Below are positions 58,322 to 64,000 of a DNA stretch of 64,000 bases, piece by piece. The DNA comes from Carcharhinus amblyrhynchos (Eukaryota). The first letter of the stretch is position 1, and every line of letters begins with the position of its first letter. Both the position numbers and the translations under genes were made by a program. The notes under the pieces are model-generated. The model was not told the origin of the DNA, did not search any database, and worked only from the letters and a program-made list of their open reading frames with translations. Location of the stretch: positions 61,876,001-61,940,000 of the forward strand of contig OZ336885.1 in the NCBI GenBank assembly GCA_965287045.1. The letters run 5' to 3'.

Positions 58322-59530
58322 TTAGAAATAAGAAATAGGAGCAGTAGTAATCCATCCAGCCCTTCGAGCCTGCCCCGCCATTCAAAAAGATCATGGCTGA
58401 TCTGTCGCTGCTCAGTTCCACATTCCCGCCCTCTCCCCATAACCCTTAATCCCCTCTCCTATCAAAAACCCATCAACCCGCGTCTTAAAAATATTTAGCG
58501 AGACAGCCTCCACCACTTCAACGGGCAGAGAATTCCAGAGATTCACCACCCTTTGAGTGAAGAAGTTCCTCCTCAACTCCGTTCTAAACCGCCCCACTTT
58601 TATGTTAAGGCTGTGCCCCCTAGTCCTACTGTCTTTTTTGAGCGGGAAGAGTCTTTCCACCTCTATCCTATCCATCCCATTCATCATCTTATCCGTCTCA
58701 ATGAGATCTCCCCTCATTCTTCTAAACTCTAACGAGTACAAGCCTAGTTTATTCAGCCTCTCCTCATAGCTCAACCCCCTCAACTCCGGTGTCAGCCTAG
58801 TAAACCTCCTCTGCACTCCCTCCAAGGCCAAAATATCTTTGCGCAGGTGCGGCGCCCAAAACTGCACACAGTACTCCAGCTGCGGCCTCACCAATGCCCT
58901 ATACAGCCGCAGCAAGACCTCCCTACTTTTATATTCAATCCCCCTCGCTATGAAGGCCAGCATCCCATTCGCCTTCCTGACCACCTGCTGCACCTGCAAG
59001 CTGGGTTTTTGCGACTCATGCACAAGGACCCCGAGGTCCCTCTGCACCGTCGCCTGCTGCAGTTTTTCGCCCCGTAAGTAATAGTCCTTCCTACCATTCT
59101 TCCTACCAAAGTGGACCACCTCACACTTGCCAACATTAAATTCCATTTGCCATTTCCTGGCCCATTCGCCCAGCCTATCTAGATCCTTCTGCAGACACTC
59201 CACACCCTCCGCACAATTTGCCGTTCCCCCAATCTTGGTGTCATCAGGAAATTTCGAGACTCTACACTCGGTTCCCTCCTCCAGATCATCTATATAAATG
59301 GTAAAAAGCTGATGCCCCAGCACCGACCCCTGGGGCACTCCACTAGTCACCATCCGCCAATCCGAATAGCACCCGTTGACCCCCACTCTTTGCCTCCTAT
59401 TTGACAACCAATCCTCTATCCACGCTAACACCCTACCCCCAACTCCATGTCCCTCGACCTTCTGCAATAACCTCTTGTGAGGTACTTTGTTCGACGCCTT
59501 CTGTAAATCTAGAAAGACCACATCCACCGG
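58322..59530 (-). mobile_element. Young 5'-truncated CR1 LINE with open RT frame
   Basis: ORF 58412-59590: VDVVFLDLQKASNKVPH, GVPQGSVLG, KFPDDTK (FADD altered), C-terminus intact; nearly identical to 10266-11210. Confidence 0.97.
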
Positions 59531-59971
59531 CTGGAGTGAAGGTTGAACGTCTGTACAAAAAATGTCGAAAAACCACCCTTCCACATCCACAATCTGTTCA
59601 AATTCTCTGTAATTATATTACTTCTTTTTAATGCGTATATAATTATTGGTCATTTCCGGCAAAGATATTTAATGTCGTGGTGGTTCTATATGTCCAACTT
59701 TATTCAACAAAGTTAAATGCTGCAGTCATTTAGTAAGTTGCTGAATTTTATTTTCCTGTTGAAGCATTAAGTGGGGTCGCAGAACTAATTTGAACGCAGG
59801 AACTTTTCCGCCTGTTGGAAAGAGCGTGGTCGAGGTCAATAAGATCCCATCATTCTTGTGACGGTTGACTGACATTTCTGGTTATTTATCATTGATGTTC
59901 GAACCCAGCAACGTCCCCACTACCCCCCAGCCACATCCACCCCGCTTTCCGCCACCTCGCCCCGCGACCAA

Positions 59972-60003: not shown

Positions 60004-60431
60004 AACACCTCCACTGTTGATACTCTGAGAAAGCTTTCTGCACATCTAGTTAGCATTTCAGGGAGGCGGCACATTAGTCCTTCCGAGGAACAACCGGACT
60101 GACAAAACATGCTCGTCATAGAACTTTGTTAACAGTTGATGAGCTACTGATCAAAGGATGTGTTCGCTGCACGTAAACATGAAGGTCTAAATTAATATTT
60201 AAAATATCACTGTCTGTTGGGTTACATGAAAATTAATAAGGCAACAAAAGGCGATGAGTAAAAATACTTAAAATAACACCTTATGTGCAACGAATGCTTC
60301 AAATCGGCCGCATGACGGGCCTACTACATTATAAGAAGGCAGATCAGATATGTGTCTAACTGGGAGTAATAGATGTTCCTGGGGAATTTTTGTGCAACCT
60401 GCATAATTTCGAAAAATATGTAGAGACCAAC

Positions 60432-61033
60432 TGTAGAAGAAATTAGATTCCTATAAGCAATTAGTTTGCATAGAAAAGTAAGTCTGTTTTAAACGGACTT
60501 ACTATAGCAGGGGCTAAAGCTGCAACAGTAGCTAAAGGGTTAATGATTCACTATATACTCACCATTACACCGAAAATCAACAAACTAGCTGAAGCAGGCA
60601 GGGTTAGAAAAACAGGGCCTAGCAGACACTCAAGGTCTAAAGGCCAGATAACGGGCCATCTGCCTTTAGGAGGATAGAAAAATAAACCACCATTCTTCTC
60701 CCCTATCTAGTTACGGTAAATCACAAGGGACAGGGACTGTAGGATGATTTAGACCAAGGACACTATAGATAAGTCCTAGGACCATAGTTTTAATTCATGG
60801 GACAATGATTAAAGGGGTAATAGAGATAGTAAAGATAATAGGGAGTATTGTAACCTGCTTGCAGAGTTGTTTATTTCACTGTATAACAATAGCGCGGGTT
60901 TGTTCAGAAAATTCAGAGTTCTCTCGGTGTTGACTGAGGTGTACTCTCCGTGATATCACGACAATAAACTCTCCTGACGCCTGACTCTGAACGTCTCTGC
61001 CTGAGCTATTCTGAGCTAGGAATTTCCTCGACA
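60432..61033 (+). repeat. 5' LTR of ERV2
   Basis: TGTAGAAGAAATT...AATTTCCTCGACA terminal inverted repeat (11/13); TATAA ~60882; AATAAA 60963-60968; PBS follows. Confidence 0.88.
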
Positions 61034-61038
61034 GAATT

Positions 61039-61058
61039 TGGCGTAGTCTTGGCAGGAT
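61039..61058 (+). promoter_or_regulatory. Primer-binding site, tRNA-Ser (2-nt insertion)
   Basis: TGGCGTAGTCttGGCAGGAT vs Ser PBS TGGCGTAGTCGGCAGGAT. Confidence 0.88.
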
Positions 61059-61378: not shown

Positions 61379-63078
61379 ATGGGAAACACACCCGGTCGAG
61401 CGGAGAAATCTGCTCCCGGCAACCCTGGCGGGACCCCTCAAGGCAAAGGTCCGGAGATGGACAAAAAGACCAAGAAAAGAGCTGAGACGGTAAAGGAGTG
61501 TCGAGAGAAGGTAGGAGACCCCGTGGTGCCCCCTGGGTCACCTGCGGAAACCGTGCTGAAAGAAACAGGGGAATGGAAGTATGTAATACCATTTAGTAGC
61601 GATCTGTACGGGTGGTCCGATGGCGATTGGCCATATGGGGGGAGTTTTAAGCTCTCCTTAATAAAAGTATGGTGGGATATAGCTGCGGGAGATGGAGGGG
61701 ACCCCACTTGGGACAAACAATATATGCTGGACTGTTTCCAGAAATGGATGGATATAGCCAAACGTCATCAGCCCCCTAAGACAAAAAAGACACAGGAGAA
61801 TTCTAAGAACGAATCTGCCAACGATAGCCCTCCCTCCTACAGTCCCGTAGCTCCGGTAGCTCCCCCAGCGCCCGTTATGGGCCTATACCCCCAACTGGAG
61901 CCCTATAAGTCAGACAATTGGAATCAACTTTTAGAAATAGCGGCAGCAGCACGAGTGCCCCACACTAATCCGTCACTCTCAGCAGCAGGCGGATTGTCCC
62001 AGGGGGAGGAGGGACCTACGGGAGCAGCCAGCCAGGAAGGCGGAGGTTTACTTGAGGAAGCGAGCTCCGTCAAGGGTGGCGAGAGTCAATCAATCTCCAG
62101 CCGACTCCGTAAACATGACAAAAGGGGGCCAGAAAAGGCAGAGGCCGATTCTACACTTGAAAAACATAAATACCAGGCTCAGAACCCCAGGATTATGATA
62201 GGCGAAACCCCTATTTTAAAACCCTGGACCCCGGGCGAAGCCCGGGATATGATTTCATCAGCCCCTGTTCCAGTTAAAAAGCCAGTGGCCTTTCACAATT
62301 GGCTGGAGCAAACCTGTACTATCTATAATCCTTACCTGGTGATATGAGACTGTTGCTGCAGGCAGCTTACGGAGCCTCGTGGCACAGTGTCCGAGACTCG
62401 TTCCCAATCCCAGTAGGAGAGAACGGGGACTGGAGGCAGGATAATGAATTACTGGATGAGGGAAATGAGTCTATGGAGCATTGGCTGAAACATAGAGGAA
62501 GGGAAGCGATGATGCAGGGGGCTAAGAGACATGGGGACATAGGTGAGGTGACCAGGTGCCGACAGAAAGCTGACGAATCAGTCATGGACTTTGCAGTTAG
62601 ATGGAGGGATGTTTGGGAAGAGAATGCCGGGATACCTTTAGATCAGAACCAACCCCTGGCAGTACAGACCCTGTTGAACTGCATGCTCCCCGAGCATGCT
62701 AGTACCTACAAAATGAAAGTGTTAGATTGGCAAGGAAAAACATGGACAGAGACGATTACGGTACTAGCTAACCTAGACAGGGAGGGACTGCTCACTCGCA
62801 CAGAGGACAGGCTGAGAGTGAGTCAGTTTTACCAGCACGGGGGGAGGGGGAGACCGGGACAGAGAGCAGGAAGCTCTGGACGAATAAAAGGAAAAGGGGG
62901 TCGGTGGCCAGCAAAAGACCGGTCCCAGGACGAATGCAGGAATTGTGGAAAAATGGGACACTGGGCTAGGGACTGTAGACTCCCCTCAAAGCGTCACACA
63001 GAAGGGCAGGGTGGGCTTCCCGAGCCCCAGATGGCTCCCCAATTCACTTTTACACAGCCGAACCCCCTCTCCGCATAG
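61379..63078 (+). pseudogene. gag: Gag polyprotein with one frameshift near 62335
   Basis: MGNTPG myristoylation start; WPYGGSF matrix motif; PPSY and LYPQL late domains; MHR-like CRQKADESVMDFAVRW; CRNCGKMGHWARDC knuckle; ORFs 61379-62347 and 62344-63078 join by a 1-nt indel. Confidence 0.93.
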
Positions 63079-64000
63079 GGGTGCCCCGGGAATGAGGTGG
63101 TACAAGCGGCTGCAATCTGTTTGTCATCTGATACAGAGGAGATACCCATGGCTACCGTGAAAATAGGGGATAGCCATTTGCAGCTGCTGGTGGACACCGG
63201 CGCTACAATGTCCTCCGTACCACTCTCCGCGGGGTTACCAGTTAGCGATTCTACCATAGTCAGCGTGGGAATTGCCGGAATCGCTATGCGCGAATCCCTG
63301 TCCTTACCCGTAGATTTAGAGATCCGAGGTAATAAAATAACAGATACTTTTATCGTTTCTAAAACAGCTCCTATTCCCCTACTGGGAAGAAGCGCTCTCT
63401 GCAAATTAGGGGCCACAATTTACTGTACAGAGGAGGGAATGTTCATGGAACTACCCTCAATACGAGCACACCAGTACTATGCAAATGTTGCCCGACCCGC
63501 TATTCCTGATACTAATAAACCAGAACCGATTTTATATTGCTGGCAGTTGGATGGCAACCCCTATTCACAGCCAGTGCAGAGACTGCTGCTAGCGTTAGAC
63601 CAAATTACGGGTTCGCTATTTGAAGGATTGAAATACATCCTCCAGACGAGCTCCGAAAAAGCACGACTCCACTGTACTGCCCGCTTCATGTATGAAGACA
63701 CGGCAGAATATACTCAGCTGGTACAGTCGCATCTGGGCGCAGAGGACGGCTTGGAAGGATCCCCCCACATATATTTTGGACCCCAAGGGGTGGGGACTGA
63801 GGTCTACCTAACGAAACAACAGCAAGCGCGATTTTGGGAGAACGACTCGATCCCTCATCTTACAATAGCCACAAAACCCCCGGCTGAGAACAGAAAGATC
63901 GGACCTATGATATACCGTTTACAGCAACAGATGCAGGCAGCGGGGTATCAACCTTGGGCGCAGGCTACAGTACCCGTGGGCAGAACTGTCTTCCAGATAG
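63079..64000 (+). CDS. pol: Pol N-terminus: aspartic protease followed by a putative 2H phosphoesterase domain (open to window end)
   Basis: In frame after the gag TAG with no stop for 307 codons; LLVDTGATMS and PLLGRSALCKLGATI (protease); then LHCTA (63667) and PHLTI (63853). Confidence 0.92.

Follow-up and report, generated by a model that had tools for sequence, protein, structure and literature searches.

The DNA analysed here is a 64,000-nt window from Carcharhinus amblyrhynchos (GCA_965287045.1, contig OZ336885.1:61,876,001-61,940,000, + strand), and "the window" refers throughout to this whole stretch. A 9.8 kb provirus begins at window position 60432; its RT, RNase H, integrase and env regions lie downstream of the domain described below, past the window end, and were read from the adjoining assembly sequence. 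The features within the window are as follows.

60427..60431 (+): left 5-bp target-site duplication; the right copy follows the 3' LTR, ~6.2 kb beyond the window end
60432..61033 (+): 5' LTR (TG...CA), 98.0% identical to the 3' LTR (12 mismatches/605)
61039..61058 (+): primer-binding site, from its sequence and its position adjoining the LTR
61379..63078 (+): gag, with one CCHC zinc knuckle and a terminal TAG in frame with pro-pol (read-through layout)
63136..63420 (+): retroviral aspartyl protease (Pfam RVP, E 9.5e-9, residues 20-114 of open frame 63079-63999)
63469..63480 (+): predicted protease site between protease and 2H domain, Gln at P2 and Tyr at P1
63517..64000 (+): predicted CNPase-like 2H phosphoesterase domain, from fold, selection and homologues; it runs ~50 bases beyond the window end
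63670..63678 (+): first H-x-T motif (HCT), equivalent to CNPase His230/Thr232
63685-63687 (+): Phe, corresponding to CNPase Phe235
63856..63864 (+): second H-x-T motif (HLT), equivalent to CNPase His309/Thr311
63889..63939 (+): predicted helix that follows motif 2, at the location of CNPase alpha7, with a gap-free alignment to host CNP
63892 (+): Arg at the position of CNPase Val321
63901 (+): Gly at the position of CNPase Gly324

The element is an epsilon-like (class I) endogenous retrovirus, assigned by its set of features (LTRs, target-site duplication, primer-binding site, single-knuckle gag, in-frame stop before pro-pol, MLV-type integrase C-terminus and env) rather than by a tree of reference genera. 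The primer-binding site, which we take to resemble tRNA-Ser, has 2 bases more in four of the five copies shown than in the C4 copy. Duplications of 5 bp also surround four other copies of the family, one of them with a mismatch. The read-through layout of the gag TAG is the one given for WDSV and the gammaretroviruses in PMC3185560, and the LTR distance corresponds to roughly 4.5 to 45 million years under borrowed rates quoted in PMC4422223. The window copy is a broken provirus, with a gag frameshift near 62330-62347, a stop in the N-terminal part of RT and a disrupted frame in each of RNase H, integrase and env; because gag is frameshifted upstream, this copy would be unable to make the domain via Gag-Pol. 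Just 5' of the provirus, at 58412-59617 (-), there is a 401-aa frame like the C-terminal part of a LINE reverse transcriptase.

The earlier note on this DNA had proposed that the retroviral pol carries a CNPase-like 2H domain after the protease. The peptide that it quoted is present in open frame 63079-63999 (+), and the two intact H-x-T motifs were confirmed at 63670 and 63856, with a spacing of 62 codons and as the sole H-x-T/S motifs in 63517-63999. The domain is ~180 aa long and lies after the protease and before RT, the start of which is just outside the window. An ordinary RT N-terminus was rejected as an identity for this segment, because the domain ends ~50 bases past the window and RT begins only then, its Pfam RVT_1 match (E 2e-25) lying downstream. 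A loose H-x-T/S pair 50-100 residues apart occurred in 2.3% of 20,000 shuffles, while a stricter pattern, set after the motifs had been seen, occurred in 0/20,000. A chance motif pair was likewise rejected, and since the pair taken by itself is modest evidence the claim is carried by fold and conservation.

The domain is predicted to adopt a 2H fold of the CNPase-like kind, as the note had suggested, with two AlphaFold2 models (pLDDT 63.8 and 67.6), Foldseek and VIA all pointing to CNPase. In the first model motif 1 had a pLDDT below 50; a deeper alignment improved the core and left the C-terminus unchanged, so that the better model (67.6) is of moderate confidence, with its C-terminal 35 residues below 50. 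When compared by VIA with 48,161 chains, mouse CNPase came out at Z 12.7 (rmsd 3.4, 167 residues aligned) and the next row at Z 4.7. The lower rows include NS2 (Z 4.7), rotavirus VP3 (3.9-4.0) and AKAP7 (3.8-3.9), together with the penguinpox cGAMP PDE and Acb1, both at Z 4.3 (rmsd 3.7 and 3.6, 105 and 103 residues aligned, respectively), and nearly all of the proteins in the top 21 rows are named as 2H-type. Foldseek at E<=0.001 gave CNPase or RICH throughout the matches listed (46 and 47 hits for the two models). The model strands 52-58 and 114-119 start at the two His, which in the 167-residue superposition on CNPase would sit side by side in one cleft, and a helix at 125-141 follows motif 2 in both models.

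Independently of the models, sequence profiles reach RICH/CNPase at E 0.012-0.04, and the profile aligns to the host's own CNP exon at E 1e-4. An Atlas feature search led to CPDase-type 2H families with a weak recognition value, below the threshold of the tool. No family was matched in a Pfam scan of the domain, the CNPase profile (Pfam PF05881) weakly matched two of the 15 aligned members (best E 0.0023), and phmmer with the domain against PDB sequences gave chance matches only.

We then compared the active site with that of CNPase in up to 41 sequences of the viral clade, seven of which come from this genome and are mutually related. Of the 36 sequences that cover both H-x-T/S motifs, 32 have them intact and four have lost a motif residue; the Phe235 position is Phe or Tyr in 35/38 and the Gly324 position is Gly in all 41. 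Two positions depart from CNPase: Arg is found at the Arg307 position in 0/41 and Val at the Val321 position in 0/41, the latter being Arg or Lys in 36/41, whereas host CNP has both Arg307 and Val321, in an alignment that is gap-free from motif 2 to Gly324. A Tyr in the first strand is present in 27 of 31 covering sequences, its register relative to CNPase Tyr168 being ambiguous. According to PMC4643303, the beta5-alpha7 loop is unique to CNPase and tied to the attacking water, and helix alpha7, near the start of which Arg307 sits, is absent from other 2H enzymes. Given this location of Arg307, the positive charge may now lie across the pocket from its place in CNPase, and as the pocket differs from that of CNPase at Arg307 and Val321 the specificity may have shifted.

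Vertebrate CNPase and fish RICH (PF05881; PDB 2xmi, 1woj, 2i3e) thus resemble the viral domain in the predicted 2H fold, the two H-x-T motifs, the Phe235 and Gly324 equivalents and the helix after motif 2, but they are only 16-20% identical to it, and the viral domain falls under the Pfam cut-off and is embedded in a viral polyprotein. CNPase has in addition an N-terminal PNK-like domain and a prenylated tail, while the viral domain is without both and has the protease directly upstream. Because the Arg307 and Val321 positions differ across the viral clade, we class the domain as one that probably works like CNPase but leave it outside the CNPase family itself.

Searching the genome at the DNA and protein levels recovered at least 13 copies of the family (72-100% identical) plus one distant copy at 34-36%, both counts being lower bounds. 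An assembly artefact was rejected, the 13 copies being spread over 12 contigs. No stop or frameshift interrupts the domain frame in five of the 13. Both His are kept in 13/13, in line with the expectation that they are conserved among paralogous proviruses, with synonymous changes at both codons between subfamilies; the first Thr is kept in 12/13 and the second in 13/13. With variants common to at least two copies, pN/pS is 0.31 for the domain (95% interval 0.22-0.43; p 1e-14 versus neutrality) and 0.09-0.14 for PR, RT, tether, RNase H and integrase (Fisher p 0.003 to 6e-8 versus the domain), all of these p values being optimistic because the copies are recombinant and not independent. The value for envSU, in frame, is 0.11. 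The domain was under purifying selection in a cartilaginous-fish lineage, but its rate of evolution is ~3x that of PR, RT, RNase H and IN; it mattered to the replicating virus, yet changed faster than the core enzymes.

An env-less sublineage spread while retaining the 2H domain: four copies (L029 on C8, L030, the first copy on C23, L028 on C27 and L026 on C52) have one common env deletion of ~1.6 kb with an identical junction, and the few changes seen in the domain of this sublineage are confounded by recombination. Subfamily identity switches inside the 2H domain in three mosaic copies, L026 (C52), L030 (C23) and L027 (C7), the switch lying close to motif 2 in C52 and between motifs 1 and 2 in C23. 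A further copy, L024/L025 (C1), displays a large internal inversion with a breakpoint just 3' of the domain. The distant ERV family, represented by a single copy (L049:1492-1941, C2), has the same domain with Cys for the first His, which reflects either decay or loss in that lineage, one copy having been seen.

A first homologue search with a single protein returned 0/298 candidates. A later search gave 13 hits, from which P0006, P0008 and P0010 were removed as unrelated repeat proteins, and P0015, which has an internal duplication, was excluded from alignments A1-A3. The nearest database protein, 44% identical and with both motifs followed by RT, comes from the sawshark Pristiophorus japonicus, a cartilaginous-fish relative that agrees with the earlier description of the element as elasmobranch-type. 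The profile search added 17 longer proteins and 10 of similar length (E 3e-46 to 5e-14), those with a named source being teleost. In the 17 long homologues or fragments RT-region or protease domains are found beside the domain, and where protease and RT motifs are both present the domain lies between them. Each of the 11 named teleost homologues that span the motif pair retains both motifs. Trees of RT and of the domain for 22 sequences (midpoint root) have their starred, well-supported clades in common with one exception, a Takifugu sequence that groups with sharks in the RT tree only. Branches of the domain tree are several times longer than those of the RT tree, and the shark clade stands on a long branch.

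Among the viral structures of BFVD, three matches were obtained at E<=0.001, each over ~180 columns: Q2VF30, which we take to be the Gag-Pol of salmon swim bladder sarcoma virus, Q9WHI8 from WEHV-1 and A4GTG3 from WDSV. Both Q9WHI8 and A4GTG3 are labelled envelope polyprotein, not Pol. In the corrected WDSV Env described in PMC3185748, a cytoplasmic loop of ~170 residues lies between two membrane helices, and the WDSV/WEHV-1 match is likely to fall within this loop. If so, the domain would be placed in Pol or in Env depending on the virus, and would face the cytosol or the virion interior in both; the CNPase-like fold may therefore be one that moves between polyproteins.

How the domain might leave Pol is suggested by its flanks. 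At the N-flank 12 of 13 copies have a Gln-Tyr pair (the other could not be read), and 11 of 12 have one at the C-flank, the window copy being the exception there. The WDSV cleavage sites reported in PMC3185560 have Gln at P2, and cuts at both Gln-Tyr flanks would free a 190-aa protein.

On balance, we favour the view that the domain is a protease-released virion enzyme with CNPase-type 2',3'-cyclic-phosphate hydrolysis, which most likely removes ends detected by innate sensors. In the ancestral virus the domain was likely made through gag read-through and packaged, and the viral protease then likely released it as a protein of ~190 aa. This enzyme would hydrolyse 2',3'-cyclic phosphates to leave a 2'-phosphate and a 3'-OH. 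Its most likely purpose would be to strip the cyclic-phosphate ends left by host RNases on RNA fragments and nucleotides near assembling or entering virions. Cyclic-phosphate RNA ends are described as immunostimulatory (PMC8406329); stripping them would blunt sensing and could also restore the 3'-OH on a damaged primer tRNA. Of the activities raised in the earlier note, cyclic-phosphate hydrolysis was its second option and is the one that fits best, while cleavage of 2-5A, which it had put first, does not stand as the lead function: the model is far from NS2, VP3 and AKAP7 (Z 3.8-4.7 versus 12.7 for CNPase), and the motifs are kept in teleosts without RNase L.

The 2-5A reading, in which the domain would act like coronavirus NS2 as a 2',5'-phosphodiesterase and block RNase L by destroying 2-5A, nevertheless draws on several observations. 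The host genome has OAS-family genes (seven exon-level matches), and the long shark branch in the domain tree would allow a lineage-specific shift to 2-5A. OASa and RNase L are reported as functional in a cartilaginous fish, which also supports this reading, but both have been lost in ray-finned fish (PMC10400998), so that the pathway targeted by 2-5A enzymes is missing in the hosts of most homologues of the domain. As the viruses of these hosts retain the motifs (11/11 teleost homologues) where RNase L is lost, 2-5A is unlikely to be a common substrate. Two KEN-domain exons of the host genome may come from either RNase L or IRE1. NS2, the rotavirus VP3 C-terminal domain and AKAP7 are of the same 2H superfamily, NS2 and VP3 being viral examples of it, but PMC8406329 assigns the 2-5A enzymes to the LigT group, and we consider this function very unlikely. 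The main rival to cyclic-phosphate hydrolysis, rather unlikely in our judgement, is a CNPase-derived cyclic-dinucleotide nuclease, acting for instance on 2'3'-cGAMP, that would be delivered in the virion and blunt the cGAS-STING sensing of reverse transcripts. Teleosts and sharks alike have the cGAS-STING pathway, by which retroviral DNA is sensed. The faster evolution of the domain than of its neighbours fits a host conflict of this kind, and the basic residue at the Val321 position could hold the second phosphate of cGAMP, although a helix of the alpha7 type would crowd the place of its second nucleotide. Other viral 2H enzymes do cleave cGAMP (10.1101/2025.08.21.671373), and phage Acb1 and the penguinpox PDE have both the superfamily and viral immune evasion in common with the domain; however, they reach only Z 4.3 against the 12.7 of CNPase, and they use a terminal lid, of which none was identified in the viral CNPase-like domain.

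The domain could instead be a partner of RT in healing RNA ends, giving primer tRNA or fragments of the genome their 3'-OH back and so letting reverse transcription continue. Its place next to the RT region or protease in the 17 long homologues or fragments, and the agreement of domain and RT trees on well-supported clades bar one sequence, are what such a role would lead one to expect, and CNPase itself descended from tRNA-healing enzymes (PMC5434554). Yet the domain is predicted to be severed from RT, and the fold also matches the WDSV and WEHV-1 proteins labelled Env, which argues against a tight RT-coupled healing of the primer. To our knowledge, most retroviruses are without such a domain, and this absence adds to making the healing role decidedly improbable. 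We give hardly any credence to a non-catalytic decoy of host CNP, the interferon-induced blocker of Gag assembly. The CNP gene is present in the host and mammalian CNP inhibits HIV-1 assembly, but the anti-assembly activity maps to the C-terminal prenylation and a P-loop residue (PMC10761555), both outside the captured domain, the catalytic His of which are strictly kept.

That retroviruses of fish carry domains of this class was already known, and the statement in the earlier note that some teleost retroviruses have 2H domains is borne out by PMC4977317, which refers to Basta 2009 for CNPase and macro domains in epsilon-like ERVs of teleosts, and by PMC9503650, where 2H domains are listed for fish retroviruses and for WDSV with reference to Mazumder 2002. 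Either of the two cited studies, Basta 2009 or Mazumder 2002, may already give the Pol or Env position. The domain in the shark clade is of the same class as these teleost ERV and walleye epsilonretrovirus domains but divergent from them, with 22-36% local identity. Retroviruses and CNPase are unmentioned in the main text of a 2025 survey of viral 2H proteins (10.1101/2025.08.21.671373), a zebrafish ERV survey (PMC8672886) makes no mention of the domain, and our literature search found no functional test of a fish-retrovirus 2H/CNPase domain. What is added here is the Gln-Tyr flanks with the 190-aa enzyme that they predict, the loss of Arg307 together with the basic residue at the Val321 position, and the Env-labelled walleye matches. 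A wider reading that we offer as tentative is that of a single captured, CNPase-derived enzyme common to the retroviruses of fish. Its re-tuning, through the loss of Arg307 and a basic residue at Val321, would let it break down an immune signal made of nucleotides, such as cGAMP or cyclic-phosphate RNA, and it would be carried on a module that moves between Pol, in sharks and many teleost ERVs, and the Env cytoplasmic loop in the walleye viruses. Retroviruses would then have a messenger nuclease that is delivered by the virion.

Altogether, these data narrow the question to a domain with predictable ends that groups with CNPase and not with the known 2-5A or cGAMP nucleases, that has been selected in a cartilaginous-fish lineage and that persists in hosts without RNase L. 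If it destroys a messenger, an enzymatic route of immune evasion would be added to those of the retroviruses; if its activity is of the CNPase type, it would hint at a role for cyclic-phosphate turnover in infection, in which host CNP is an interferon-induced gene.
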